Positions 4,173 through 18,079 of a stretch of DNA of 18,079 bases are shown here, in pieces. The stretch's first letter is position 1; each line of letters opens with the position of its first letter. This stretch comes from a virus (Duplodnaviria > Heunggongvirae > Uroviricota > Caudoviricetes). The position numbers and the translations under genes are program-made. The notes beneath the pieces are model-generated. The model was not told where the DNA came from. It saw only the letters and a list, made by a program, of their open reading frames with translations, and did not search any database. The stretch covers positions 1 through 18,079 of the IMG/VR virus record IMGVR_UViG_2698536536_000001; one strand, written 5' to 3'.

Positions 4173-5753
4173 AGCCTCCGGGCGTTTTGTCCCTCCTTCA
4201 GCATTTGCTGCAGGCACCGGTAAGGCGTTTACCGGTGCTTATGCATGGAACGCGCCACGCGAGGCCGTCGGGCGCGAAAGACCCCTTACACGTGACGAGA
4301 TGCGTCAGGTGCAAGGTGTTTTATCCACGATTAACCGCCTGCCTTACTTTTTGCGCTCGCTGTTTACTTCACGCTATGACTACATCCGGCGCAATAAAAG
4401 CCCGGTATTGAGCGTTACGCCGCCGCAGAGGGTGATGTGGGGATGTTTATCACGCTGACCGCGCCGTCAAAGTATCACCCGACTCGTCAGGTCAGAAAAG
4501 GCGAAAGTAAAACCGTTCAGCTTAATCACGGCTGGAACGATGAGGCATTTAATCCAAAGGATGCGCAGCGTTATCTCTGTCGTATCTGGAGCCTGATGCG
4601 CACGGCATTCAAGGATAATGATTTACAGGCCTACGGTTTGCGTGTCGTTGAGCCACACCACGACGGAACGCCGCACTGGCATATGATGCTTTTTTGTAAT
4701 CCACGCCAGCGTAACCAGATTATTGAAATCATGCGTCGCTATGCGCTCAAAGAGGATGGCGACGAAAGAGGAGCCGCGCGAAACCGTTTTCAGGCAAAAC
4801 ACCTTAACCGGGGCGGTGCTGCGGGGTATATCGCGAAATACATCTCAAAAAACATCGATGGCTATGCACTGGATGGTCAGCTCGATAACGATACCGGCAG
4901 ACCGCTGAAAGACACTGCTGCGGCTGTTACCGCATGGGCGTCAACGTGGCGCATCCCACAATTTAAAACGGTTGGTCTGCCGACAATGGGGGCTTACCGT
5001 GAACTACGCAAATTGCCTCGCGGCGTCAGCATTGCTGATGAGTTTGACGAGCGCGTCGAGGCTGCACGCGCCGCCGCAGACAGTGGTGATTTTGCGTTGT
5101 ATATCAGCGCACAGGGTGGGGCAAATGTCCCGCGCGATTGTCAGACTGTCAGGGTCGCCCGTAGTCCGTCGGATGAAGTTAACGAGTACGAGGAAGAAGT
5201 CGAGAGAGTGGTCGGCATTTACGCGCCGCATCTCGGCGCGCGTCATATTCATATCACCAGAACGACGGACTGGCGCATTGTGCCGAAAGTTCCGGTCGTG
5301 GAGCCTTTGGCTTTAAAAAGCGGCATCGCCGCGCCTCGGAGTCCTGTCAATAACTGTGGAAAGCTCACCGGTGGTGATACTTCGTTACCGGCTCCCACAC
5401 CTTCTGAGCACGCCGCAGCAGTGCTTAATCTGGTAGATGACGGTGTTATCGAATGGAATGACCAGGAGGTCGTGAGGGCGCTCAGAGGTGCATTAAAACA
5501 CGGTCTGAGAAGACCAAACCGTCAGCAAAGAAACGGAAGCCCGTTAAAACCGCATGAAATAGCGCCATCGGCCAGACTGACCCGGTCGGAACGAATGCAA
5601 ATTACCCGTATCCGCGTTGACCTTGCTCAGAACGGTATCAGGCCGCAGCGATGGGAGCTTGAGGCGCTGGCGCGTGGTGCAATTGTGAACTATGGCGCAA
5701 AAGAATTTCATTACCATGTTCAGAAGGCGTGGGAAGCATTTTCGAGGTGGTAA
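4162..5753 (+). pseudogene. A: Rolling-circle replication initiator gene A, apparently frameshifted
   Basis: N-terminal frame MAVKASGRF… from 4162 ends at 4458. The C-terminal frame opens at 4398 and runs to 5753. The two frames are reconciled by a 1-nt change in the A4 run at 4396..4399. The C-terminal part carries an HUH motif (HHDGTPHWHMMLF) and a two-tyrosine motif (YIAKYISK). The combined length of about 530 aa is shorter than the roughly 760 aa I recall for P2 A. Confidence 0.7.
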
Positions 5754-5863
5754 TCTAAATATGAAAAATCTGCACACCGAAACACTCTTGTAGGTTGATA
5801 ATTTGCAAACTAGGTGGATTTACTCTTTGATGTGTAAGAAGTTATACTACAAAAAATTGATTT

Positions 5864-6784
5864 ATGGGCTTGGCGATGTATAACGATCCTTATAGTGACC
5901 CAAAAGCGTGGGAATCATATTTCAAAAATATTGTTTGGCTACATTATAAGCCTGCTAACTGTTGTGACTTGCCAGATGAGCATGGAGGCGACTTTGGGCT
6001 GGAGTGTTACACTCTGAGTGGTCATGTTTTTCAGTGTTACTTGCCTGAGCAGTCGAGTGATATTGATAAGCTTTATAAAGCGCAACAAAAAAAGATTTAT
6101 ACTGATATAAAAAAGTTTTCTCAGGATAACATTAAAGAATTAGAGGAGCTTTTTGGCACATTAAAAATTAGCCGCTGGATATTAGCTACACCATATAATA
6201 AATCGGCGAAATTAAGTCAATATTGCACAAAAAAATCATTAAAAGTAAGAGAGTTAGGGATTTCTTACGTTGCTGATGATTTTCAAATAGTAGTGCAAAC
6301 AGATCGAAATTATATAGAAGAAGCGTTCTTTCTTCGCAAAAATAACTATCAATTAAGCTTTAATATAAATGATGCGACGGCTGAGAATGCTGCTAACTTT
6401 ATTAGTGAAAATACATCTTTTTTAGATAAGCTAAATTTAAAATTACCTAAGATAAATGATGATGTATCTAGGCAGGGTTTATATAGAGAGTTTTTAATAC
6501 AAAAATATCTTGATTATCAAAACTTGCTGGATGCTTTGAAGAGAGACTGGGTTGATATCTATGAAATTATCTATAACTGTGTTCAACATAGAGAACGTAA
6601 TTTGGTAGGTCTCTTTCTTCTTACTTCATCAGATGCGAAACCATCAGATATAATGAAAGATGAAATCGCTTTGTTAAAGAAATGTATTGAAGAGGAAGTT
6701 AGTACGCTTAAACAGGCTGACTTGGATAAGATAACATGGGGAGTTATTTCTGATTGGCTTATAAGATGCCCTTTAGATTTTTAG
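5864..6784 (+). CDS. Cargo gene 1: unknown 306-aa protein, candidate effector of a defence operon
   Basis: Long ORF in a sharply AT-rich block directly after A, in the P2 tin/old hotspot position. N-terminal Cys/His-rich patch (NCCDLPDEHGGDFGLECYTLSGHVFQCY). No motif assignable by eye. Confidence 0.6.
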   Translation: MGLAMYNDPYSDPKAWESYFKNIVWLHYKPANCCDLPDEHGGDFGLECYTLSGHVFQCYLPEQSSDIDKLYKAQQKKIYTDIKKFSQDNIKELEELFGTLKISRWILATPYNKSAKLSQYCTKKSLKVRELGISYVADDFQIVVQTDRNYIEEAFFLRKNNYQLSFNINDATAENAANFISENTSFLDKLNLKLPKINDDVSRQGLYREFLIQKYLDYQNLLDALKRDWVDIYEIIYNCVQHRERNLVGLFLLTSSDAKPSDIMKDEIALLKKCIEEEVSTLKQADLDKITWGVISDWLIRCPLDF

Positions 6785-6785
6785 A

Positions 6786-7262
6786 ATGGAAAAGCAAATG
6801 CATATAACGATAGATGAAATAATAGGAAGGCCGTTTACGTTTAATAAACGACCTGAACATTTGCCATGTGATATGAGACCATTGTGGCGTTGCAGTTTGT
6901 TGCTGATAATATTCCTTGTCACAGGGAGAGCTGGTTGCTGTTCTTTAAAAAAACTTCATTTAATTAATTGGATGTTAAAGTCAGAGAATAATGAAGCAAT
7001 GTTTGAATTCTGGCTTTTAAACAAAGAAGGTTTAAAGCCTGAAGTAAGATTGGATCCAACTTTAGATAGAGCAATACAGCTATTATTAGCAGAGGATTTT
7101 ATTTTGAGAAATGAACGAGCGTTCAAAATAAATGAAAAGGGGCTTAAGGTCGCTGAGAAATTGCTTTCTCTTGATGTGTTCAAAGAAGAAAGGTTGGTGC
7201 TAAATAAACATAAGGCTGGACTGTCCGAAACTAACATTAATAAAATATTTCAGGTGGGTTAA
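6786..7262 (+). CDS. Cargo gene 2: unknown 158-aa protein
   Basis: Starts 2 bp after the gene 1 stop and ends 1 bp before gene 3. Same AT-rich composition. Contains one hydrophobic stretch (LWRCSLLLIIFLVTG). Confidence 0.55.
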   Translation: MEKQMHITIDEIIGRPFTFNKRPEHLPCDMRPLWRCSLLLIIFLVTGRAGCCSLKKLHLINWMLKSENNEAMFEFWLLNKEGLKPEVRLDPTLDRAIQLLLAEDFILRNERAFKINEKGLKVAEKLLSLDVFKEERLVLNKHKAGLSETNINKIFQVG

Positions 7263-7263
7263 T

Positions 7264-9285
7264 ATGTCGTTGGAAATTATTTCATTGGAGTTAGTAGCAA
7301 ATACTTCGGATGGGCGTTATGGTGTTAGTATACCTTTTTCAAATGGCTTGTTTTTATTAAGAGTTGAGAATTCTCATGGTAAATCAACTTGCATGAATGG
7401 GATTGCATATGCACTTGGGATGGAAAAGGCATTAGGTGTCGGTTCTGGAAAAATCCCATTCCCTCCATCTTTGACTAGAGCACTAACGACAAAAGATAAT
7501 GTTGAAGTTAGTGTAATATCATCTTATGTTTTGCTAAAAATAAAGAATCATAAGGGAATAGAAGCATCTTTGAAAAGGAATATTATCGGTCACGATAATA
7601 ATAATGTTATTTATATAGATGAGAAGAATAATGTAAAAAGTAAGAGTGGTACTTATTTTTTACATAGAGAGGGCGATACTGAAAGGGAACGTGGTTTCTA
7701 TAAGTGGTTAGCTGATTTTATAGGTTGGAGTTTGCCAAATGTTCCAAACCATAATGGGAAGGACACTATTCTTTATCCATCCGTACTTTTCCCTGCATGG
7801 TATGTTGAGCAAAAAAAAGGATGGTCGTCAATTATGGCGACTGTACCAACACAATTTGGAATTAAAGAGCCAAAGAAAAGAGCTCTAGAATTTTTAATGT
7901 CTCTTGATGTTAATGATAATATTTTATTGCGTAGTTCGTTAAGAAATGAACTTGATATTATTTATCATGATTGGAAGTTAATTAAACACAATGCAGAAGT
8001 TATTGCTTCTAAATTGTCGTCAGTTGTCACAGGGATTCCTGAACAACCAGTGGCAAAATTTGATCATTATAAGATAGATTTGATTATTAAAAATGGTAGT
8101 GTCGTTAGATCTATTGTTGATGTTCGTAATGAACTGGAAAAAGAGTTGCAAGAAATTAAGTTTGACACTCTTGGTGAGCAAGAAGAACAAACTTTACAAT
8201 TATCAGTGGTTAAGTTATTAGGTCAAAAAAATGATGAAATTAACTCTCTGGAATTAAAGATTAAAGAGATTTGTGAGCATAGAAGTTATATTCAATATCA
8301 AATTCAGGCGACCAAAAACAGATTGTATAATCTGTTGGAAGATAAAAGGAAGTATGAAGATTTAAAGAAAATATCATCTTCGGATGCGTATAAGTCAACA
8401 GATTTAATGTCAAATATTTGTCCGACTTGTGGTGCAAGTTATAATGATAATTTGCTAAGTTTTTCATCGCAAGAAAATCTGATGACATATGAAGATAGTT
8501 TGAACTTTATTAAAGAGCAAGTAAAAGCATTTGAGTTTGTTCTGTCGGATAGTGAAAAGCAATTAAAGCTTAAAGATGTTGAGAGGAGTGATTTAGAGGG
8601 GGAAATAGCCAAGATTAGAGTTGATATTAATGCATTAAGGGAGTCAAAATATCCCTCAATGGTTGTTCAGGAGGAGTTTCTGAGACGTAAAATAAACATT
8701 GAGAATAAAATTAATGCCATTAACGATGGCATTAAAAGTATATTGGACATTAGACTGGAGTTGGATTCATTACACCGTAGATATAAAAAGCTTATCGCGA
8801 AAAGAAAAGGGTTGCCAGATAATTTCTTGTCGCGTAATGATGCCGATAAGTTAAAATTTCTTAATAAAGAAGTCGTTGCACGATTAGAAAAATATAATTT
8901 TACAAGTTTTGATTCTAAACTTGTGTCAATATCAGAAGATAATTACTTACCTACTAGGGAAGGATATGATATAGGTTTTGACACATCAGCTAGTGATGGA
9001 ATAAGAATCATTTGGGGTTATTTAATAAGTTTATTTGTTGTTGGTTCTAAATTTCAAACAAATCACCCTGGATTGATTGTGTTTGATGAGCCTCGTCAAC
9101 AAGAAGCAAATAAAGTAAGTTTTGCCGAGTTACTTAAAGATGCTGCAGAAACAACAAAAGGACAAGGGCAGATCATTTTTGCTACATCAGAAGATGAAAA
9201 TGTCTTAAAAGAGGCATTAGAAGGGTATGACTATACAATGATATCCTTTGATAAGAACAATGGGAAATTGTTGAGGAAATTATAA
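7264..9285 (+). CDS. Cargo gene 3: SMC/Rad50-like ABC ATPase with coiled-coil arms, 673 aa
   Basis: N-terminal Walker A-like P-loop VENSHGKST (about 7366..7389). Long K/E/L-rich heptad-like middle region. CPTC motif at 8419..8430 near the middle of the coiled coil. C-terminal Walker B/D-loop GLIVFDEP (about 9071..9094). Confidence 0.75.
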   Translation: MSLEIISLELVANTSDGRYGVSIPFSNGLFLLRVENSHGKSTCMNGIAYALGMEKALGVGSGKIPFPPSLTRALTTKDNVEVSVISSYVLLKIKNHKGIEASLKRNIIGHDNNNVIYIDEKNNVKSKSGTYFLHREGDTERERGFYKWLADFIGWSLPNVPNHNGKDTILYPSVLFPAWYVEQKKGWSSIMATVPTQFGIKEPKKRALEFLMSLDVNDNILLRSSLRNELDIIYHDWKLIKHNAEVIASKLSSVVTGIPEQPVAKFDHYKIDLIIKNGSVVRSIVDVRNELEKELQEIKFDTLGEQEEQTLQLSVVKLLGQKNDEINSLELKIKEICEHRSYIQYQIQATKNRLYNLLEDKRKYEDLKKISSSDAYKSTDLMSNICPTCGASYNDNLLSFSSQENLMTYEDSLNFIKEQVKAFEFVLSDSEKQLKLKDVERSDLEGEIAKIRVDINALRESKYPSMVVQEEFLRRKINIENKINAINDGIKSILDIRLELDSLHRRYKKLIAKRKGLPDNFLSRNDADKLKFLNKEVVARLEKYNFTSFDSKLVSISEDNYLPTREGYDIGFDTSASDGIRIIWGYLISLFVVGSKFQTNHPGLIVFDEPRQQEANKVSFAELLKDAAETTKGQGQIIFATSEDENVLKEALEGYDYTMISFDKNNGKLLRKL

Positions 9286-9408
9286 ACTTTTATGTTGCTG
9301 CATTAGAATGCATGATTATTGTTTATCTGTTAAGAGTGCTCCGTGCCAGTGTCGGCGCGGAGAAATCATGTCATGCACCTGCATTAAAACCGACCCATGA
9401 AGCGGGCG

Positions 9409-9427
9409 GGCGAGGCGGGGAAAGCAC
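9409..9427. other. Putative cos site (19-nt cohesive end ggcgaggcggggaaagcac)
   Basis: Matches the P2 cohesive-end sequence as I recall it. Lies in the GC-rich intergenic region between the hotspot cargo and Q, where cos sits in P2. Confidence 0.55.
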
Positions 9428-9565
9428 TGCGCGCTGGCGGTGGTGCTGATTTTATTTTCCAGCGTCTCAGCGCGTCGTGACGGCGCTTAGTCTGCCCGTT
9501 GGGGGTTGGTGTGTCTGCGGGGTGTTTTGTGCGGTGGTGAGCGAGTGAGGGCGTGATGACGGGGT

Positions 9566-9589
9566 ATAAAAAAGCCGCCCGCAGGCGGC
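9566..9589 (-). terminator. Rho-independent terminator downstream of Q
   Basis: Minus-strand hairpin gccgcc-tgcg-ggcggc (stems at 9574..9579 and 9584..9589) followed by a U-run (a-run 9566..9573 on the plus strand), directly 3' of the Q stop. Confidence 0.5.
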
Positions 9590-9594
9590 GATGT

Positions 9595-10629
9595 TCAGCC
9601 GTTGTCAGTGTCCAGTGAGTAGTTTTTAAAGCGGATGACCTCCTGACCGAGCCAGCCGTTTATCTCGCGGATCCTGTCCTGTAGCGGGATAAGCTCATTG
9701 CGGACAAAGACCTTTGCCACTTTCTCAATATCACCCAGCGACCCGACGTTCTCCGGCTTGCCGCCCATCAACTGAAAGGGGATGCGGTGCGCGTCCAGCA
9801 GGTCAGCGGCGCTGGCTTTTTTGATATTAAAAAAATCGTCCTTCGTTGCCACTTCACTGAGCGGGATAATTTTGATGCCGTCGGCTTTCCCCTGTGGGGC
9901 ATAGAGAAACAGATTTTTAAAGTTGTTGCGGCCTTTCGACTTCACCATGTTTTCGCGGAGCATTTCGATATCGTTGCGATCCTGCACGGCATCAGTGACG
10001 TACATGATGTATCCGGCATGAGCGCCGTTTTCGTAATACTTGCGGCGGAACAGTGTGGCTGATTCATTCAGCCAGGCAGAATTAAGGGCGCTGAGATATT
10101 CCGGCAGGCCGTACAGCTCCTGATTGATATCCGGCTCCAGCAGGTGAAACACGGAGCCGGGCGTGAAGGCTGTCGGCTCGTTGAAGGACGGCACCCACCA
10201 GTAAACATCCTCCTCCACGCCACGGCGGGTATATTTTGCCGGTGAGGTTTCCAGTCTAATGACCTTACCGGTGGTGCTGTAACGCTTTTCCAGAAACGCA
10301 TTACCGAACACCAGAAAATCCAGCACAAAGCGGCTGAAATCCTGTTGCGAAAGCCACGGATGCGGGATAAATGTCGAGGCCAGAATATTGCGTTTAACGT
10401 AAATCGGTGAGCTGTGATGCACGGCAGCACGCAGGCTTTTCGCCAGACCGGTAAAGCTGACCGGCGGCTCATACCATCTGCCGTTACTGATGCACTCGAC
10501 GTAATCCAGAATGTCACGGCGGTCGAGTACCGGCACCGGCTCACCAAAGGTGAAAGCCTCCATTTTCGGGGCGCTGGCGGTCATTTTTTTTGCCTCAGGT
10601 TGCGGTGTTTTCCCTTTTTTCTTGCTCAT
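9595..10629 (-). CDS. Q: Portal (capsid) protein Q, 344 aa
   Basis: 344 aa, the length I recall for P2 Q. N-terminus MSKKKGKTPQP… Adjacent to cos and in P2 orientation. Confidence 0.85.
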   Translation of the reverse strand: MSKKKGKTPQPEAKKMTASAPKMEAFTFGEPVPVLDRRDILDYVECISNGRWYEPPVSFTGLAKSLRAAVHHSSPIYVKRNILASTFIPHPWLSQQDFSRFVLDFLVFGNAFLEKRYSTTGKVIRLETSPAKYTRRGVEEDVYWWVPSFNEPTAFTPGSVFHLLEPDINQELYGLPEYLSALNSAWLNESATLFRRKYYENGAHAGYIMYVTDAVQDRNDIEMLRENMVKSKGRNNFKNLFLYAPQGKADGIKIIPLSEVATKDDFFNIKKASAADLLDAHRIPFQLMGGKPENVGSLGDIEKVAKVFVRNELIPLQDRIREINGWLGQEVIRFKNYSLDTDNG

Positions 10630-10940
10630 CAGTAAAACTCCAGAATGGTGGATGTCAGCGGAGTGCTGATACCGGCGGTGAGTGGCTCATTTAACAGGGC
10701 GTGCATGGTTGCCCAGGCGAGGTCGGCGTGGCTGGCTTCCTCGCTGCGGCTGGCCTCATAGGTGGCGCTGCGTCCGCTGCTGGTCATGGTCTTGCGGATA
10801 GCCATAAACGAGCTGGTGATGTCGGTGGCGCTGACGTCATATTCCAGACAGCCACGGCGGATAACGTCTTTTGCCTTGGCCGACATCGTGCTCAACAGTA
10901 CGCAGGCGTCTTTCTGTACCGAATACCGCGTCGTGACCGG
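10629..10940 (-). pseudogene. P: 3' remnant of terminase large-subunit gene P, truncated by deletion
   Basis: Open frame whose stop overlaps the Q start (ATGA), as for P-Q in P2, but only about 100 codons remain before it collides with gene I on the opposite strand. Upstream boundary is approximate. Homology to P not verified. Confidence 0.4.
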
Positions 10941-10948
10941 AGGCTCGG

Positions 10949-11479
10949 ATGAGTGATTCGCGACTGCTGCCGACCGGCTCATCACCGCTTGAGGTCGCCG
11001 CCGCAAAAGCCTGTGCGGAAATTGAAAAAACGCCGGTCAGTATTCGTGAGCTGTGGAACCCGGACACCTGTCCGGCAAATCTGCTGCCGTGGCTGGCGTG
11101 GGCGTTTTCGGTCGACAGGTGGGATGAAAAGTGGCCGGAAGCGACAAAACGCGCCGTTATCCGCGATGCGTATTTCATCCACTGTCATAAGGGCACTATC
11201 GGTGCAATCCGGCGTGTGGTGGAGCCGCTCGGCTATCTCATCAACGTGACGGAGTGGTGGGAAAACAGTGACCCGCCAGGCACCTTCCGGCTTGATATTG
11301 GTGTTCTGGAAAGTGGCATCACAGAGGCAATGTATCAGGAAATGGAACGGCTGATTGCTGATGCCAAACCTGCAAGCCGTCACCTTATTGGCCTGAACAT
11401 TACCCGGGACATTCCCGGCTACCTGTTCGCCGGTGGTGTGGCTTACGACGGCGATGTAATTACGGTTTACCCCGGATAA
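10949..11479 (+). CDS. I: Baseplate assembly protein I, 176 aa
   Basis: 176 aa with sequence matching recalled P2 gpI (MSDSRLLPTGSSPLEVAAAKA…). SD ggagg upstream. Immediately followed by H. Confidence 0.8.
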   Translation: MSDSRLLPTGSSPLEVAAAKACAEIEKTPVSIRELWNPDTCPANLLPWLAWAFSVDRWDEKWPEATKRAVIRDAYFIHCHKGTIGAIRRVVEPLGYLINVTEWWENSDPPGTFRLDIGVLESGITEAMYQEMERLIADAKPASRHLIGLNITRDIPGYLFAGGVAYDGDVITVYPG

Positions 11480-11489
11480 GTGAGGAATA

Positions 11490-13700
11490 ATGAGCACAAA
11501 ATTCAGAACCGTTATCACCACTGCCGGTGCAGCAAAGCTGGCAGCGGCAACCGCGCCGGGAGGGCGGAAGGTCAACATTACCACGATGGCCGTCGGGGAT
11601 GGCGGTGGTAAATTGCCTGTCCCGGATGCCGGACAGACCGGGCTTATCCATGAAGTCTGGCGACATGCGCTGAACAAAATCAGCCAGGACAAACGAAACA
11701 GTAATTATATTATCGCAGAGCTGGTTATTCCGCCGGAGGTGGGCGGTTTCTGGATGCGTGAGCTTGGCCTGTACGATGATGCGGGAACATTAATTGCCGT
11801 GGCGAACATGGCCGAAAGTTATAAGCCAGCTCTTGCCGAAGGCTCAGGGCGTTCGCAGACCTGTCGCATGGTCATCATCGTCAGCAGTGTGGCCTCAGTG
11901 GCGCTGACCATTGACACCACAACGGTGATGGCGACGCAGGATTACGTTGATGACAAAATTGCAGAGCATGAACAGTCACGACGTCACCCGGACGCCTCGC
12001 TGACCGCAAAAGGTTTTACTCAGTTAAGCAATGCGACCAACAGCACGTCTGAAACACTGGCCGCAACGCCGAAAGCGGTAAAGGCCGCGTATGATCTTGC
12101 TAACGGGAAATACACTGCGCAGGATGCCACCACAGCGCGAAAAGGCCTTGTCCAGCTCAGTAGCGCCACCAACAGCACGTCTGAAACGCTCGCCGCAACA
12201 CCAAAAGCGGTAAAGGCAGCATATGACCTGGCTAACGGGAAATATACCGCACAGGACGCCACCACAGCGCGAAAAGGCCTTGTCCAGCTCAGTAGCGCCA
12301 CCAACAGCGATTCTGAAACGCTTGCGGCAACGCCAAAGGCGGTAAAAGCAGCATATGACCTTGCTAACGGGAAATACACTGCACAGGATGCCACCACGGC
12401 GCGAAAAGGTCTTGTCCAGCTCAGTAGCGACACCAACAGTGATTCTGAAACGCTGGCCGCAACACCAAAAGCGGTGAAGTCTGCCTATGACAATGCTGAA
12501 AAACGTCTTCAGAAAGATCAGAACGGTGCGGATATTCCGGGAAAGGATACCTTCACGAAAAATATCGGTGCCTGTCGTGCTTATAGCGGTGCTTTGAGCA
12601 CTGAAGCCGGAAACTGGACAACCGCTCAGTTTATTGACTGGCTAGAGTCTCAGGGAGCCTTTAATCATCCCTACTGGATGTGCAAGTGTTCCTGGTCATA
12701 CGGTAATAACAAAATTATTACCGATACTGACTGTGGGACGATTCATCTTGCAGGTTGCGTGATTGAGGTTATGGGCGTTAAAGCAGCAATGACCATTCGT
12801 GTGACCACTCCGAGTACATCAAGCGGTGGTGGTACCACCAGTGCGCAATTCACGTATATCAATCACGGAGCTGATTATGCGCCGGGCTGGCGACGCGACT
12901 ACAATACGAAAAATAAGCAACCGGCTTTTGCATTAGGGAAAACAGGAAATACGGTTGCAAATAATAAAGCGGTAGGATGGAACTGGGACAGTGGTGCTTA
13001 TTGTGCAAAGGATGGCGGAGCATCCAAAATGGTGCTGCATTTTTACACGGGTGAGGGAAGTTGTCCGGCAATGCAGTTTCTTGTGGATTATAAAAACAGG
13101 GGGATTTTTTACAGGTCGGCACGTGATTGGTATGGATTTGAGGCTGACTGGTCAGAGTTTTATACCACATCACGAAAGCCAACACCTGCGGATATTCTTG
13201 CTCTGGCATTATCAGGTGGAAGCATGTCAGGCAGCATAAAATTTATCAATGATGCCTTCCTGATTTGGGAAAGAAACACTGATTGGGCGAAAATTGGATT
13301 TAAAAATGATTCAGATGCTGATTCTGACTCATACATGTGGTTTGAAACTGGTGATAATGGCAATGAATATTTTAAATGGCGCATCAGGTCTGGCAGCACA
13401 ACAAAAGATCTGATGACGCTTAAGTCTGATGCACTACGGGTTACCGGGCAGGTGATACCATCAAATTTCAGCAATTTTGACTCCCGCTATGTCCGGGATA
13501 TCCGGCTTGGTGGTGCCGCCACATACAAACCTGCGAACAATGGCATGACATGGACACATCAGGCACCGTCCGGGTGTGTATATACCGGCATTATTGTTCA
13601 GGATACCGGCTCAAACTCTGCCGATAACATTGGTGGCGTATATTACAGACCGGTTCAGAAATACATTAACGGGACGTGGTACAACGTGGCGCAGGTATAA
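11490..13700 (+). CDS. H: Tail fibre protein H, 736 aa, with internal tandem repeats
   Basis: Conserved P2-type N-terminus (MSTKFRTVITTAGAAKLAAA…). Central 44-aa tandem repeats. C-terminal part is lower in GC and presumably the receptor-binding region. SD gagga upstream. Followed by G. Confidence 0.85.
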   Translation: MSTKFRTVITTAGAAKLAAATAPGGRKVNITTMAVGDGGGKLPVPDAGQTGLIHEVWRHALNKISQDKRNSNYIIAELVIPPEVGGFWMRELGLYDDAGTLIAVANMAESYKPALAEGSGRSQTCRMVIIVSSVASVALTIDTTTVMATQDYVDDKIAEHEQSRRHPDASLTAKGFTQLSNATNSTSETLAATPKAVKAAYDLANGKYTAQDATTARKGLVQLSSATNSTSETLAATPKAVKAAYDLANGKYTAQDATTARKGLVQLSSATNSDSETLAATPKAVKAAYDLANGKYTAQDATTARKGLVQLSSDTNSDSETLAATPKAVKSAYDNAEKRLQKDQNGADIPGKDTFTKNIGACRAYSGALSTEAGNWTTAQFIDWLESQGAFNHPYWMCKCSWSYGNNKIITDTDCGTIHLAGCVIEVMGVKAAMTIRVTTPSTSSGGGTTSAQFTYINHGADYAPGWRRDYNTKNKQPAFALGKTGNTVANNKAVGWNWDSGAYCAKDGGASKMVLHFYTGEGSCPAMQFLVDYKNRGIFYRSARDWYGFEADWSEFYTTSRKPTPADILALALSGGSMSGSIKFINDAFLIWERNTDWAKIGFKNDSDADSDSYMWFETGDNGNEYFKWRIRSGSTTKDLMTLKSDALRVTGQVIPSNFSNFDSRYVRDIRLGGAATYKPANNGMTWTHQAPSGCVYTGIIVQDTGSNSADNIGGVYYRPVQKYINGTWYNVAQV
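12010..12495. repeat. Tandem coding repeats inside H, 132-bp unit, about 3.7 copies
   Basis: Units begin at about 12036, 12168, 12300 and 12432. They are roughly 90% identical, differing mainly at third codon positions, and encode ATNSTSETLAATPKAVKAAYDLANGKYTAQDATTARKGLVQLSS. Confidence 0.85.
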
Positions 13701-13703
13701 TTT

Positions 13704-14231
13704 ATGCAGCATTTGATAAATATAACGGCAGGTAATCCAAAAACGGTTGAACAATATCAATTGACAAAGGACTTTGATGTTGTCTGGTTTTTTTCAGAAG
13801 ATGGTAAGAACTGGTACGAAGAACAAAAGTATTTTGCTGATGACACGATAAAAATAGCGTACGACAAAGATAATATTATCCGCTATGTGGAAAAGGATGT
13901 GACAGCTATCAGACCGGATGGATTAAGTGTGGTTGAAGTGGTGGATATTACTGCTAATCGACGGGCGGACATTTCAGGGAACTGGATGTTTAAGGACGGC
14001 AAAGTGATTAAACGCATTTATACGGCAGAGGAATTGCGGCAGCAGGCAGAAAACCGGAAAGCCAGACTTCTTGCAGATGCTGAATCCGTGATTTTGCCGC
14101 TGGAGCGCGCGGTCAGACTGAACATGGCAACAGATGAGGAGCGTAGCCGACTGGAAGCATGGGAACGCTACAGCGTTCTGGTCAGTCGTGTGGAGCCTGC
14201 AAATCCTGAATGGCCGGAAATGCCGCAATAA
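13704..14231 (+). CDS. G: Tail fibre assembly protein G, 175 aa
   Basis: 175 aa, directly downstream of H as in P2. Start is 3 bp after the H stop. Confidence 0.8.
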
Positions 14232-14412
14232 GTTGTATGAGCTTACATATCTATTGCGTAGAGTAAAGCATAATCTGACAGTCCGCTCTGTGCCAGAAGC
14301 GGACGTAGCGGCAGCATACATAACCTTATGATTTCTTAAAATTTTCCGCTTGGTTTCTGATTGACTAATGAAAATTAATTGAAATTATAAAGCATTCGCA
14401 GTAACTTGTGCG

Positions 14413-14658
14413 GTGCCGATAATTTCATTCTACCCAATATCATTTATGATTGTAGATAAGAGTAGTGAAAAATATAACAACGGATATAGTGTTGCAATAC
14501 CACTTGGAGCCGTGAAAATGGAACTGGCCGATGATGTACTAAAAATAAACCTTTCATCATGGAATGATATTAAAACAGGATTTCCTTACACAGGGATTAA
14601 TGAGTATGAGTTACTCATATTAGATGAGAATCTTTCATTTATAACTTATAAAAAATAA
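14413..14658 (+). CDS. Hypothetical small protein in the Z/fun hotspot position (start uncertain)
   Basis: AT-rich ORF between G and FI. The ORF-track start is a GTG; an alternative ATG lies at 14446. No clear SD. No recognisable motif. Confidence 0.3.
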   Translation: MPIISFYPISFMIVDKSSEKYNNGYSVAIPLGAVKMELADDVLKINLSSWNDIKTGFPYTGINEYELLILDENLSFITYKK

Positions 14659-14713
14659 CAATTAACAATACTTCACTTATGTGTGAGTGGTTTTAAAGAG
14701 TAAATAATTCATA

Positions 14714-15016
14714 ATGGAAAAAAGTATGACAATTGAAACCATAAAAATACTAGCGGCAATTAGTAGCATCATTGGTTCTATGATTCTTGCCTATCGAGTT
14801 ACAGGGATTCTTGCAGCACTTTCTCTTGCAATAGATTGCCATGAAGAAAACATTAAACAATTAATGCCAACCAATAAGGGGGATGTTTATTATCTCGCAA
14901 ATGCAACTACGCACGTTAAAAATGCGCAAAAGAAACCGCTTCTAATCACGGGGTTTATCTTTCTAATTGCATCTGGTTTTTTGCAGTTTACAGCGTTGAT
15001 AATGGCAAATATTTAA
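14714..15016 (+). CDS. Small membrane protein, about 100 aa with two predicted transmembrane helices
   Basis: Hydrophobic segments IKILAAISSIIGSMILAY…GILAALSLAI and LLITGFIFLIASGFLQFTALIMANI. AT-rich. Followed by a terminator at 15186..15213. Confidence 0.5.
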   Translation: MEKSMTIETIKILAAISSIIGSMILAYRVTGILAALSLAIDCHEENIKQLMPTNKGDVYYLANATTHVKNAQKKPLLITGFIFLIASGFLQFTALIMANI

Positions 15017-15185
15017 CAATGGAATGATACCACCGGTGGTGCGGCTGAAACGATTTGTACGTCATTTAAGCCGCATCGAAATTTAAAGTAACGTCCGCAA
15101 TTCGCTCCAAGCAGACTGTCAGATTTGATAGCGTTTTGGCTATGTAAATTGTCAGTCGGAAAATGAGTGAATACAAATCAGGACA

Positions 15186-15213
15186 GGCGGGCTGATTGCC
15201 CGCCTTTTCTTTA
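15186..15213 (+). terminator. Rho-independent terminator after the Z/fun-position cargo
   Basis: Hairpin ggcgggc-tgatt-gcccgcc followed by ttttcttt. Confidence 0.55.
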
Positions 15214-15308
15214 TCTGTTGTTTCATCCCCTGACCAGCCAGGTCAAATAGCGTCTCATGCTCTGCACAACAGAAAATAGTTGCACCCATTAACCACGGAG
15301 TTAAACGG

Positions 15309-16145
15309 ATGAGTGACTATCATCACGGCGTGCAGGTGCTGGAGATTAACGACGGCACCCGCGTCATTTCCACCGTATCCACTGCCATTGTCGGCATGGT
15401 CTGCACGGCCAGCGATGCGGATGCGGAAACCTTTCCCCTCAATAAACCTGTGCTGATTACCAATGTGCAGAGCGCAATTGCAAAGGCCGGTAAAAAAGGC
15501 ACGCTGGCGGCGTCGCTGCAGGCCATCGCCGACCAGTCAAAACCGGTCACCGTTGTTGTGCGCGTGGAAGACGGCACCGGCGACGACGAGGAAACGAAAC
15601 TTGCGCAGACCGTTTCCAATATCATCGGCACCACCGACGAAAACGGTCAGTACACCGGCGTAACGGCAAAGTGGTTACACACCAAAGACCCGAAGCCGCA
15701 AAAGCAGAAGGTAAAACTGAAACGCAAAAAGAAAGAAAAACACCTGCGCGCACTGGAGCACCCGAAAGCGAAACCGGTCACGCAGAAGAAAGCGCCAAAA
15801 GTACCGGAAGCGCGCGAAGGTGAATACATGGCCGGTGAAGCTGACAACGTTTTTGCCCTGACTACGGTATATGCCACGAAAGCACAGGCCATGCGCGCCG
15901 CTCAGGCGAAGTGGGATAAACTGCAACGGGGCGTTGCGGAGTTCTCCATCAGCCTTGCCACTGGTCGTGCTGATATTTACACGGAAACACCGGTCAGAGT
16001 GTCAGGCTTTAAGCGCGTCATAGACGAGCAGGACTGGACCATCACTAAGGTGACACATTTTCTGAATAATAGCGGCTTCACGACGTCCTTGGAGCTTGAG
16101 GTCAGGCTTTCTGATGTGGAGTACGAAACAGAAGATGATGAGTAA
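15309..16145 (+). pseudogene. In-frame fusion remnant: tail sheath FI N-terminus joined to tail protein D C-terminus (yegZ-like)
   Basis: First ~118 residues ([14 protein letters not shown]…TDENGQYTG) match the recalled P2 FI sheath N-terminus. The C-terminal ~100 residues lie immediately upstream of ogr, where gene D ends in P2. The two are joined by a Lys-rich linker. FII, E, T, U and most of FI and D are missing. Confidence 0.65.
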
Positions 16146-16226
16146 TGTTTTTATTTTATCTGTTTGTTTTATAAGGATAAATTAACTAAAATGGCACCGT
16201 CAACAAAACCGGAAGAGGTGCTCGCG

Positions 16227-16445
16227 ATGTTTCATTGTCCTTTATGCCAGCATGCCGCACATGCGCGTACAAGTCGCTATATCACTGACACGACAAAAGA
16301 GCGTTATCACCAGTGTCAGAACGTGAATTGTAGCGCCACGTTCATCACTTATGAGTCGGTACAGCGATACATCGTGAAGCCGGGAGAAGTCCACGCCGTA
16401 AGGCCGCACCCGTTGCCATCAGGGCAGCAAATTATGTGGATGTAA
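16227..16445 (+). CDS. ogr: Late-gene transcription activator Ogr, zinc-finger protein, 72 aa
   Basis: Sequence MFHCPLCQHAAHARTSRYITDTTKERYHQCQNVNCSATFITYESVQRYIV… matches recalled P2 Ogr, with C-x2-C…C-x4-C zinc-finger cysteines. Start taken at the internal ATG with SD ggaagagg, not the upstream ATG at 16164. Confidence 0.9.
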   Translation: MFHCPLCQHAAHARTSRYITDTTKERYHQCQNVNCSATFITYESVQRYIVKPGEVHAVRPHPLPSGQQIMWM

Positions 16446-16457
16446 TTACAAACAGAA

Positions 16458-16482
16458 AGCCCCTCAGTCGAGGGGCTTTTTT
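16458..16482 (+). terminator. Rho-independent terminator of ogr
   Basis: Hairpin agcccct-cagtcg-aggggct followed by tttttt. Confidence 0.6.
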
Positions 16483-16513
16483 GTCGATGTGGTCAATGTG
16501 TGGACGTGACCAG
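16483..16513. promoter_or_regulatory. Arm-type repeat region next to the right att core (tgtggtcaa / tgtggacgt)
   Basis: Sequence gtcgatgtggtcaatgtgtggacgtgaccag contains two TGTGG(A/T)C motifs. A close copy of this segment also occurs at 429..458 in the left flank. Confidence 0.4.
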
Positions 16514-16546
16514 AAATAAATCCTTTTATTTCAATTTGTTGTACGT

Positions 16547-16573
16547 AAAAAATAAGCCCGTGTAAGGGAGATT
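16547..16573. repeat. Right copy of 27-bp P2 att core
   Basis: Exact direct repeat of 477..503. It overlaps the terminator end of cyaR. Confidence 0.8.
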
Positions 16574-16634
16574 ACACAGGCTAAGGAGGTGGTTCCTGGT
16601 ACAGCTAGCATTTTATGGGTTATGTTTTTCAGCG
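16547..16634 (-). ncRNA. cyaR: Hfq-dependent small RNA CyaR (RyeE)
   Basis: Minus-strand sequence GCTGAAAAACATAACCCATAAAATGCTAGCTGTACCAGGAACCACCTCCTTAGCCTGTGTAATCTCCCTTACACGGGCTTATTTTTT matches recalled CyaR, including the CCUCCU anti-SD motif and the terminator hairpin with U-tail. Between yegQ and ogr, as in E. coli K-12. Confidence 0.8.
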
Positions 16635-16684
16635 AAACGGATGATAACCTTAATAAATGCAGCTGTATGTGATCGGTTTCTAAG
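16635..16684 (-). promoter_or_regulatory. Putative cyaR promoter with CRP-like site
   Basis: Reading the minus strand, a -10-like TATCAT lies at -13..-8 relative to the inferred +1 (plus coordinates 16642..16647). A CRP-like half-site pair TTAGA-N6-TCACA lies at 16669..16684. CyaR is known to be CRP-activated; the site match is partial. Confidence 0.4.
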
Positions 16685-16717
16685 AATTTTCCATCCGGGA
16701 AAAATAATCGAAATTAA

Positions 16718-18079
16718 TCACTTACCGTGGGGATTACGCGTGGTTTCCCCGGAGAAATTACGCATCAGCAGCGCGTAATTGAGCTCAAGATCCTGCGGGA
16801 CCGGGAGCCACACAGTATAACCATCGCCTGGTGCTATCGGCATAGCTTCGCCTTTGGCGTTTTCCATGTGCTCAAGGGTAAAATTAATGTTGCCTTGCGG
16901 CGTCATCAGCTCAAGGCTGTCGCCAACGGAGAATTTATTTTTCACCGCTACCGCCGCGAGGTCCCCCTTGCGCTCACCGGTAAACTCACCAACAAACTGC
17001 TGGCGGTCAGAAACTGAATAACCGTATTCGTAGTTCTGATAATCGTCGTGAGTATGACGACGCAGGAAACCTTCGGTATAGCCACGATGCGCCAGACCTT
17101 CCAGAGTTTCCAGCAGGCTGGTATCGAACGGTTTTCCCGCAGCGGCGTCATCGATAGCTTTGCGGTAAACCTGTGCGGTGCGTGCACAATAGTAGAAAGA
17201 TTTGGTACGACCTTCGATTTTCAGCGAATGCACGCCCATTTTGGTCAGGCGTTCTACATGGGCGATGGCGCGCAGATCTTTCGAGTTCATGATGTAAGTG
17301 CCGTGCTCATCTTCAAACGCGGTCATATACTCGCCCGGACGCTGGGCTTCTTCGATCATAAACACTTTGTCGGTTGGCGCGCCGATACCTAGCGTCGGCT
17401 CAACATTTTGCACCGGAATCGGCTCGTACTTGTGTACGATGTTGCCAACGTCATCTTCTTTCCCTTCCTGGACGTTGTACTCCCAGCGGCAGGCGTTGGT
17501 GCAGGTACCCTGGTTCGGATCGCGCTTGTTGATATAGCCAGAGAGCAGGCAGCGACCGGAGTAGGCCATGCACAGCGCACCGTGAACGAAGATCTCGATC
17601 TCCATATCCGGCACCTGATTGCGGATCTCTTCAATCTCTTCCAGCGACAGCTCGCGAGAGAGGATCACGCGGGTCAGGCCCATTTGCTGCCAGAATTTCA
17701 CCGTCGCCCAGTTTACGGCGTTAGCCTGCACCGAGAGGTGGATCGGCATTTCAGGGAAGTGCTCACGCACCAGCATAATCAGCCCTGGATCGGACATAAT
17801 CAGCGCATCCGGCCCCATTTCCACCACCGGTTTCAGGTCACGGATAAAGGTTTTCAGCTTGGCGTTGTGCGGTGCAATGTTGACCACGACATAAAACTTT
17901 TTCCCCAGCGCGTGGGCTTCATTGATGCCGAGCTGAAGATTTTCGTGGTTGAATTCGTTGTTGCGCACACGCAGGGAGTAACGCGGCTGGCCCGCATAAA
18001 CAGCATCTGCGCCATAAGCGAAAGCGTAACGCATATTTTTCAGCGTTCCCGCCGGGGAAAGGAGTTCCGGTTTAAACAT
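16718..18079 (-). CDS. yegQ: U32-family peptidase-like protein YegQ (TrhP), 453 aa, complete
   Basis: Full-length ORF from MFKPELLSPAGTLKNMRYAFAYGADAVYAGQ… matching recalled E. coli YegQ. The start codon is at the last three bases of the window. Confidence 0.9.
   Translation of the reverse strand: MFKPELLSPAGTLKNMRYAFAYGADAVYAGQPRYSLRVRNNEFNHENLQLGINEAHALGKKFYVVVNIAPHNAKLKTFIRDLKPVVEMGPDALIMSDPGLIMLVREHFPEMPIHLSVQANAVNWATVKFWQQMGLTRVILSRELSLEEIEEIRNQVPDMEIEIFVHGALCMAYSGRCLLSGYINKRDPNQGTCTNACRWEYNVQEGKEDDVGNIVHKYEPIPVQNVEPTLGIGAPTDKVFMIEEAQRPGEYMTAFEDEHGTYIMNSKDLRAIAHVERLTKMGVHSLKIEGRTKSFYYCARTAQVYRKAIDDAAAGKPFDTSLLETLEGLAHRGYTEGFLRRHTHDDYQNYEYGYSVSDRQQFVGEFTGERKGDLAAVAVKNKFSVGDSLELMTPQGNINFTLEHMENAKGEAMPIAPGDGYTVWLPVPQDLELNYALLMRNFSGETTRNPHGK

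Follow-up and report, generated by a model that had tools for sequence, protein, structure and literature searches.

The low-GC stretch in the tail fiber region of the analyzed window (all 18,079 nucleotides of the IMG/VR record IMGVR_UViG_2698536536_000001, a member of the Caudoviricetes) is very probably the distal half of a P2-type tail fiber, responsible for receptor binding and forming an exchangeable cassette that continues through the first half of the adjacent chaperone gene G. The far half of gene H would then be AT-richer because it is a receptor-binding cassette traded among Mu, P1, lambda-like, and T4-like phages. The gene order I-H-G was collinear with positions 12193 to 15274 of P2, within the P2 late V operon arrangement (Table 1). 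Based on sequence similarity, H combines parts of the backbone with parts of a cassette, and its C-terminal part (C-part) is itself a chain of submodules: first a Mu S'-like domain, next a conserved segment resembling Mu S, and finally a tip.

Table 1. Positions in the window of genes I, H, and G and of the putative domains of H
Feature	Position	Strand	Evidence
Gene I, P2 baseplate/tail protein I, 176 aa	10949..11479	+	Pfam PF09684 Tail_P2_I, E 6e-56
Gene H, P2-type tail fiber, 736 aa	11490..13700	+	PF12571, PF03406 x4, gp37_C, Gp34_trimer
H N-terminal tail-collar fiber domain, aa 1-151, baseplate-proximal	11490..11942	+	PF12571, E 2.6e-58; 96-100% DNA identity to P2
Tandem 132-bp (44-aa) fiber repeats	12036..12491	+	TRF, 3.5 copies; PF03406 x4, E 1e-79
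Mu S'/P1 Sv'-like domain, aa 334-571	12489..13202	+	8ju3 residues 177-416, E 4e-117
Conserved segment NDxxLxWxRNTDWAKIGFKND...YMWFETGDNGNEYFKWR, aa 572-656	13203..13457	+	5yvq_A residues 183-267, E 5e-31
Fiber tip, aa 657-736	13458..13700	+	S-type resemblance
Gene G, tail fiber assembly chaperone, U-type, 175 aa	13704..14231	+	PF02413 Caudo_TAP, E 4.6e-33

A single-split likelihood scan placed the GC change point in H at nucleotide 12486 (log-likelihood ratio [LLR], 9.5), with GC contents of 0.554 upstream and 0.461 downstream of that point, and this LLR was attained in 2 of 1,000 codon-order shuffles. The first-pass annotation, made from the sequence alone, had described lower GC in H after a set of repeats; both the repeats (Table 1) and the drop were confirmed, and at the boundary given there, GC contents were 0.551 (11490-12499) and 0.462 (12500-13700; Fisher test, P = 3e-5). 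The GC and codon-usage comparison that it had proposed across H yielded significant shifts in GC, in GC3 (0.57-0.59 to 0.44 across the boundary), and in synonymous codon use; GC1 fell from 0.575 to 0.463. The C-part was also more AT-rich than gene I, as had been stated (0.461-0.462 versus 0.563; P = 1e-4). The accompanying statement that it is more AT-rich than G did not hold (G, 0.453 overall; P = 0.75 versus the C-part), and the low-GC region makes up the 3' 55% of H rather than its 3' third.

The low-GC block was not uniform. The N-terminal domain of H had the same GC content as gene I (0.563), the S'-like domain had a GC content of 0.469 (GC3, 0.424), the conserved segment had the lowest value in H (0.412), and the tip (last 240 nt) had a value of 0.500, which is not low. 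From approximately 12486, the block extended into the first half of G (0.383), and the second half of G was at 0.523. Three boundaries agreed to within 5 nt, namely, the GC split at 12486, the repeat end at 12491, and the start of Mu S' homology. The shift in H is modest against the element's own GC heterogeneity; in the P2 late region, 19.5% of 1,215-bp windows had GC contents of ≤46.1%. Much stronger AT-rich islands lie elsewhere in the window (33% GC at 5864-9285).

Part of the drop was attributable to the encoded protein. When backbone codon usage was applied to the amino acids of H, the expected GC content was 0.575 for the N-terminal part (N-part) and 0.526 for the C-part, which is the direction predicted if the distal domains simply need Asn, Tyr, Lys, Phe, Ile, and similar residues and have no separate history, as is the decrease in GC1. 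The observed GC content of the C-part (0.462) was well under that expectation, however, and the use of synonymous GC-ending codons differed between the C-part and N-part (Cochran-Mantel-Haenszel [CMH] test, P = 5e-4) and between the C-part and Q/I/FI::D (P = 9e-12). Approximately half of the drop therefore reflects amino acid composition, and approximately half reflects synonymous codon choice. A purely protein-level origin, which would also leave the collapse of P2 identity at the same boundary and the matches to Mu, P1, and other phages without a cause, is thus very unlikely; the stratified test of synonymous codons and the breakpoints in identity have largely refuted it. Because amino acids explain about half of the drop, composition alone is a weak sign of foreign origin.

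The first-pass annotation had read the shift as modular exchange of the receptor-binding region, and sequence comparison supported that reading independently of GC. DNA identity to P2 (NC_001895) was 96 to 100% from gene I, which served as the backbone reference, through the N-part of H; it collapsed after the repeats (approximately 12346-12491) and returned only as a patch at 13273-13436 (82%). G was only approximately 75% identical. Like P2, the window has the I-H-G order, PF12571, PF03406 repeats, a Caudo_TAP chaperone, and a C-part shared with unrelated phages, and the P2 GC pattern is similar (H N-part, 0.56, and C-part, 0.475; G halves, 0.37 and 0.50). The two differ in that the P2-specific middle (P2 aa ~287-420) is replaced here by the Mu S'/P1 Sv'-like domain, a distal domain of ~120 aa found in P2 and Mu S is missing, the tip and G are only 45% and 74% identical at the amino acid level, and a copy number indel leaves four repeats here and fewer in P2. 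The repeat array is a likely recombination linker, since the GC content changes and P2 identity is lost at its 3' end.

Comparison of the C-part with fibers of unrelated phages, also suggested by the first-pass annotation, revealed matches in several lineages. Pieces of it were present in P1, Mu and D108, the Stf gene of PhiR42_1, Aeh1 (Straboviridae, T4-like), and phAPEC8 (Stephanstirmvirinae). H aa 334-571 was 72% identical to Mu Sv' (local blastp, aa 329-569), with 79% amino acid identity of the S'-like domain to P1 Sv' and 74% to D108 S' (tblastn), and H aa ~334-484 was 83% identical to the side tail fiber of PhiR42_1, which carries annotated Stf/Tfa side tail fiber genes. The conserved segment was common to Mu S, P1 S, and P2 H and contained a Pfam match to Gp34_trimer (aa 599-654) that was under the family cutoff. 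The tip had 51% amino acid identity to the Mu S tip, 45% to P2 H, and 37% to Mu/P1 S' and is thus nearer the S type than the S' type; H aa 652-735 also matched Mu S (5yvq), and the tip had a weak match to the short tail fiber 9cuy_c. The repeat motif SETLAATxKAVK also occurred at the end of Mu Sc.

Another scenario is that this prophage recently acquired its entire C-part in one step from P1, Mu, or another low-GC source and that there was no time for amelioration; the GC content of the donor pool (42 to 48% for Mu S/Sv', P1 Sv/Sv', and U/U') and the 72 to 79% protein identity of the S'-like domain to Mu/P1 S' are in keeping with it. At the DNA level, however, identity of the C-part to Mu, P1, and P7 was only 71 to 75%, and therefore neither Mu nor P1 is a recent donor. 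No donor outside Peduovirus with >95% DNA identity over all of 12489-14231 was found in the phage collection searched. Moreover, the submodules of the C-part have separate relatives, and the drop was family-wide, occurring even in unrelated alleles; it was found in eight of the eight Peduovirus H genes checked, which carry different C-modules. The drop is thus a standing property of the cassette pool and no sign of recent import, and we consider such an event highly improbable.

Within Peduovirus, other H genes diverged from that of the window at differing points, namely, 12900 (YpM_46 and P37), 13180 (12474III), and 13441. The tip was 92.7% identical at the DNA level to H of phage 11W, the N-part of which was only 78% identical. 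The same H allele was found in two complete phage genomes, fiAA91-ss (NC_022750) and NC_070905 ("P2DC1"), with approximately 97 to 98% DNA identity across the whole of H; NC_070905 was 97.5% identical over 10900-14300 (I-H-G), and H of fiAA91-ss (692 aa) had one repeat fewer and a C-terminal 404 aa that was 99.5% identical. Some piece of the C-part was detected in 556 of 5,426 Escherichia coli genomes, among which partial coverages recurred, and only 30 genomes contained at least 80% of it.

In contrast to these two complete phages, the window holds a deleted prophage. Relative to P2, it has three internal deletions (P to J, FI to D, and within A) and lacks the V operon promoter pV, V, W, most of J, and the sheath, tube, baseplate, and head genes, with most tail genes lost. 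Such losses could suggest that the GC drop records AT-biased mutational decay of a nonfunctional gene in a defective prophage. Yet H is an intact ORF, the same sequence occurs in fiAA91-ss and NC_070905, the N-part of H shows no such effect, and the same drop was present in all eight related genes, making decay an extremely improbable cause. A chance GC fluctuation within the gene, conceivable given the modest shift and the equally AT-rich windows of the P2 late region, was refuted by the shuffles, the Fisher test, the agreement of the split with the repeat end and the start of Mu S' homology, and replication in the related genes.

Gene G belongs to the same diverged, exchanged block. Its product matched Mu U (5yvq_B) over its full length (E = 1.5e-81), with 74% amino acid identity to P2 G and P1 U, 71% to Mu U, and 54 to 55% to U'. 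The N-terminal half was equally similar (66 to 69%) to U, U', and P2 G, and the C-terminal half separated the types (77 to 80% to U-type versus 40 to 44% to U'-type proteins). The chaperone of Mu binds the distal fiber (PMC9608196). A cotraveling pair formed by the fiber tip and a fiber-binding N-terminal domain of G was considered as the cause of the low GC and was unsupported, as the C-terminal and not the N-terminal half distinguishes U from U' and the low-GC first half of G is conserved in all alleles (0.37-0.39 in all Peduovirus G genes checked).

In the exchangeable-cassette reading, H is a chimera. The N-terminal domain and the 44-aa repeats represent P2 backbone (approximately 55% GC), and all of H past the last repeat derives from a pool of fiber cassettes shared by Mu, P1, other P2-like, Stf-carrying, and T4-like phages, a pool that is itself AT-richer (42 to 48% GC). 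The cassette is composite, with a Mu S'/P1 Sv'-type domain followed by a Mu S-type segment and an S-type tip, paired with a U-type G. Short conserved stretches may serve as linkers at which exchange takes place through homologous or relaxed recombination; candidate linkers, placed where similarity starts and stops, are the SETLAATPKAVK repeat, the NGADIP motif, and the conserved FKND...FETGDNGNEYFKWR segment. A swap would alter host specificity while attachment to the baseplate is retained. By analogy with homologues, trimerization of the fiber probably starts at its C terminus, assisted by G, and the fiber probably binds the lipopolysaccharide (LPS) core, so that exchange of the C-part would change host range. 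In a P2-like phage, swapping the C-terminal hypervariable region of the fiber changed host range (PMC5285337).

The Mu and P1 cassettes (Mu S'/U' and S/U, corresponding to gp52/gp51 and gp49/gp50 [PDB 8ju3 and 5yvq], and P1 Sv'/U' and Sv/U) resemble the window in segment matches and in low GC. They are invertible, unlike the arrangement found here, which has no invertible segment, gix/cix site, or invertase. A relic of an invertible fiber segment was rejected, as no gix-like site or junction motif was detected in or near H. A search of the whole window on both strands for Mu gix, allowing up to 9/26 mismatches, returned a sole match at position 1989 (9/26), and the junction motif LQETVN was absent from H. 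The ORF list contained a single fiber and chaperone set on one strand, with no serine invertase ORF beside G; downstream of G were an AT-rich region, small ORFs without Pfam matches, and the FI::D fusion.

The window further differs from the Mu and P1 cassettes in that an S'-type domain and an S-type tip are fused serially in one fixed gene and in that a U-type chaperone, and not a U'-type one, accompanies the S'-type domain. The two fibers of Mu recognize the outer and inner LPS core, with the S' type reportedly recognizing the inner core (PMC11821841). Since an S'-type domain and an S-type segment and tip are present in one fixed polypeptide, the product could be a two-specificity fiber, and the combination of S' domain, S tip, and U-type chaperone suggests that a chaperone match is needed for the tip only. 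The fuller proposal, in which the fiber has dual or broadened specificity, the chaperone matches the extreme tip only, and the intact I-H-G block acts as a recombination reservoir, seems to us rather unlikely. If it were true, upstream receptor-binding domains would be freely swappable, with the chaperone constrained by the extreme tip only, and the intact I-H-G of a gutted prophage would rearm incoming P2-like phages.

H in this element is probably an unexpressed relic, given that the prophage is defective and has lost pV and most tail genes. A promoter scan of 10500-15350 detected nine promoter-like sites versus 7.5 expected, a chance-level result that provides no support for expression of H, and the sole strong terminator-like hairpin in this interval was at 15185-15205. 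Among complete E. coli genomes, no record covered at least 80% of 9300-16700, and the deleted configuration was thus not found there. At most, recombination could pass the cassette of H on to an incoming P2-like phage.

Mosaicism of H is already known, is a textbook case, and has been recognized for P2 since 1992, when Haggard-Ljungquist, Halling, and Calendar (J Bacteriol 174:1462) reportedly traced P2 fibers to horizontal transfer among unrelated phages. The discovery value is small, as exchanged C-parts of P2 H have already been exploited to retarget P2/P4 delivery vectors. Engineered P2-P1(S') chimeric fibers work and can be directed against Shigella (Fa-arun et al. 2023, PMC9942202). These chimeras, which are functional with altered tropism, resemble H of the window in that an S'-type distal portion follows the N-part of P2; theirs is the complete distal portion of P1 S', used with U', in contrast to the S-type tip and U-type chaperone of this natural allele. 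Natural junctions that tolerate fusion were mapped at the repeat end/NGADIP (~aa 330-350), at ~aa 470, at ~aa 563-571, and at ~aa 650, and these could guide the design of chimeric fibers. For genome scanning, the finding is a caution: the GC drop within the tail fiber is a family-wide standing feature and no marker of recent transfer.

GC content was examined per gene and in sliding codon windows, and a single-split likelihood scan placed the change point within the P2-type tail fiber gene H at nucleotide (nt) 12486, with GC contents of 0.554 before and 0.461 after (LLR, 9.5; equaled by 2 of 1,000 shuffles of codon order). At the boundary given in the first-pass annotation, the values were 0.551 and 0.462 (Fisher, P = 3e-5), and GC3 fell across H to 0.44 from ~0.57 to 0.59; the lower GC content reported there is therefore real. 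Roughly half of the drop reflected protein-level composition and half synonymous codon choice, as amino acid sequence under backbone-gene codon usage predicted GC contents of 0.575 for the part before the end of the repeat array (N-part) and 0.526 for the part after it (C-part), against the 0.462 observed in the latter. GC-ending synonymous codons in the C-part differed significantly from those in the N-part (P = 5e-4) and in Q/I/FI::D (P = 9e-12; tests stratified by amino acid), and amino acids were not the sole cause. Four corrections apply to the earlier description: the low-GC stretch covered 55% of H rather than its 3' third; its GC content was uneven (0.469, 0.412, and 0.500 in the S'-like domain, conserved segment, and tip); the assembly chaperone gene G, described as GC-richer than the C-part, had a GC content of 0.453 overall (0.383 and 0.523 in its first and second halves); and the drop was mild next to islands with 33% GC in other parts of the window.

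The change point at nt 12486 had three independent landmarks no more than a few bases away. The tandem array of 132-bp repeats ended at 12491, homology to the Mu S' variable part began at H amino acid (aa) 334 (nt 12489), and DNA identity to P2, which was 96 to 100% from the upstream tail gene I through the H N-part save for a repeat-number indel, vanished between 12346 and 12491. Downstream, P2 DNA matched only at 13273 to 13436 (82%) and in G (~75%). The number of 44-aa repeats (12036 to 12491) differed between otherwise near-identical H alleles, which would presumably alter fiber length; H of the window and of NC_070905 aligned with one unit more than H of fiAA91-ss and P2.

Alignment with solved structures matched H aa 334 to 571 to Mu S' residues 177 to 416 (8ju3; E = 4e-117), aa 572 to 656 to Mu S residues 183 to 267 (5yvq), and aa 652 to 735 to the Mu S tip (residues 425 to 503). 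H aa 288 to 362 aligned with the end of Sc, the constant part of the Mu fiber; both the repeat motif and "NGADIP" lie in the aligned stretch. Relative to P2 H, the protein had more 44-aa repeats, an S'-type domain took the place of the middle part specific to P2, and a distal domain of ~120 aa found in P2 and Mu S was missing. Tip identity was higher to the S type (51% for Mu S and 45% for P2 H) than to the S' type (37%), and G was of the U type (71 to 74% identity to Mu U, P1 U, and P2 G; 54 to 55% to U'). Conservation across U, U', and G was about equal in the N-terminal half of G (66 to 69%), and the C-terminal half separated U-type (77 to 80%) from U'-type (40 to 44%) chaperones, reversing the rule quoted for Tfa proteins ("variable N-domain, conserved C-domain"). 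The comparisons show H to be mosaic, with breakpoints and homology to solved fibers, and G to be homologous to a solved chaperone. The only mildly unusual feature was an S'-type domain followed in series by a tip of the S type and a chaperone of the U type, an arrangement also present in the known phages fiAA91-ss and NC_070905.

The proposed modular exchange of this region was supported by the differing breakpoints of relatives and by C-part pieces in phages with other backbones. Sequence in common with the window H ended at the repeats in P2, at 12900 in YpM_46 and P37, and at 13180 in 12474III; in phage 11W, the tip (13441 to 13700) was 92.7% identical and the N-part only 78%. At the protein level, pieces of the C-part matched P1 Sv' (79% identity), D108/Mu S' (72 to 74%), an annotated side tail fiber (Stf) of PhiR42_1 (83% over ~150 aa), Aeromonas phage Aeh1 (Straboviridae), and phAPEC8 (Stephanstirmvirinae), in which the piece adjoined the phage's own Tfa gene. 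Some piece of 12486 to 13700 occurred in 556 of 5,426 complete Escherichia coli genomes, with recurrent partial coverages, and at least 80% of the stretch in only 30. Two complete phage genomes carried the same allele: fiAA91-ss (C-terminal 404 aa, 99.5% identical) and NC_070905 (97.5% DNA identity over I-H-G).

The GC drop is a standing feature of the pool of cassettes and not a mark of recent import into this prophage, since all eight Peduovirus H genes examined, with different C-modules, showed it (N-part, 0.53 to 0.56; C-part, 0.46 to 0.485) and every donor-pool gene had a lower GC content than the P2 backbone (Mu S, 0.458; Mu Sv', 0.473; P1 Sv', 0.482; U/U', 0.42 to 0.45). DNA identity to P1, P7, and Mu, only 71 to 75%, likewise argues against recent import. 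Every G of the eight had GC contents of 0.37 to 0.39 in the first half and 0.50 to 0.52 in the second.

The window holds a P2-like (Peduovirus) prophage integrated beside a yegQ-type U32 peptidase gene, with blocks collinear with P2 (NC_001895) between att cores at 476 and 16573 (local blastn). Pfam domains confirmed the earlier naming of I, H, and G (see the table). An ogr homologue (16164 to 16445) was kept beside attR at the yegQ-side site, and host flank genes included yegQ, a DUF1508 gene, and baeRS-like and mdt-like genes.

Features of the prophage and its flank (window nt)
Feature	Position	Strand	Details
LmuA-like	5864-6784	+	PADLOC E 1e-29
LmuC-like	6786-7262	+	PADLOC E 2.5e-23
LmuB/SMC-like ATPase	7264-9285	+	PADLOC E 1e-98
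Gene I	10949-11479		Pfam Tail_P2_I
Gene H	11490-13700		736 aa; Pfam PF12571, four PF03406 fiber repeats; weak gp37_C, Gp34_trimer matches
Gene G	13704-14231		Pfam Caudo_TAP
ORF, 81 aa	14413-14658		Inside 14304-15090
ORF, 100 aa	14714-15016		Hydrophobic-rich; inside 14304-15090
yegQ-type U32 peptidase gene	16718-18079	minus	
Deletion 1	10877-10878		10.65 kb; P (P2 nt 1470) joined to J 3' end (12121)
Deletion 2	~15651-15658		5.46 kb; FI (P2 nt 18001) joined to D (23460)
Deletion 3	~4402-4406		~0.68 kb; inside gene A

A strongly AT-rich island (5864 to 9285, plus strand; 33% GC) occupied the P2 tin/old position, with the P2 match absent across 5707 to 9380. It encodes a three-gene Lamassu-type defense operon, in whose proteins Pfam recognized next to nothing. 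A second AT-rich stretch (14304 to 15090; ~30 to 37% GC), without a P2 match, lay at the Z/fun position, upstream of a strong terminator-like hairpin (15185 to 15205); its two ORFs had no Pfam or PADLOC matches.

Relative to P2, the prophage had three internal deletions. The P-to-J deletion removed the pV promoter along with genes for the head, lysis, and the baseplate, and the FI-to-D deletion yielded an in-frame FI::D fusion ORF (15309 to 16145), the protein of which was matched on one contig (CXYB01000001.1) of the NCBI draft assembly GCA_001268725.1. The exact configuration was absent from complete RefSeq E. coli genomes, none of which had at least 80% of 9300 to 16700 in one place. This prophage is unable to make a tail, and I-H-G are without their late promoter; because of this, and because promoter-like matches around I-H-G were at chance level, H is most likely a relic that is intact but silent.

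H had the sequence and gene-order features of P2-type gpH and, with G, those of the exchanged fiber/Tfa cassette class. An invertible segment of the Mu G or P1 C type was ruled out, as neither a gix-like site in or near H nor an invertase gene next to G was found. Exchange of the H C-part is an already known phenomenon and nothing new; the title of a 1992 paper by Haggard-Ljungquist, Halling, and Calendar names it.

P2 fibers are the first to bind the host, and gpG is required for their assembly (PMC9594776). The Mu chaperone attaches to the distal fiber and secures trimerization (PMC9608196, summarizing North et al. 2019). Swapping a C-terminal hypervariable region of a P2-like fiber altered host range (PMC5285337), and P2-P1(S') chimeras work and are retargeted to Shigella (PMC9942202). 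The two Mu fibers target the outer and inner lipopolysaccharide (LPS) core (PMC11821841). The window H allele probably arose through recombination at two conserved places, the repeat/NGADIP linker and the FKND...GNEYFKWR segment, and its receptor would be an LPS core structure.
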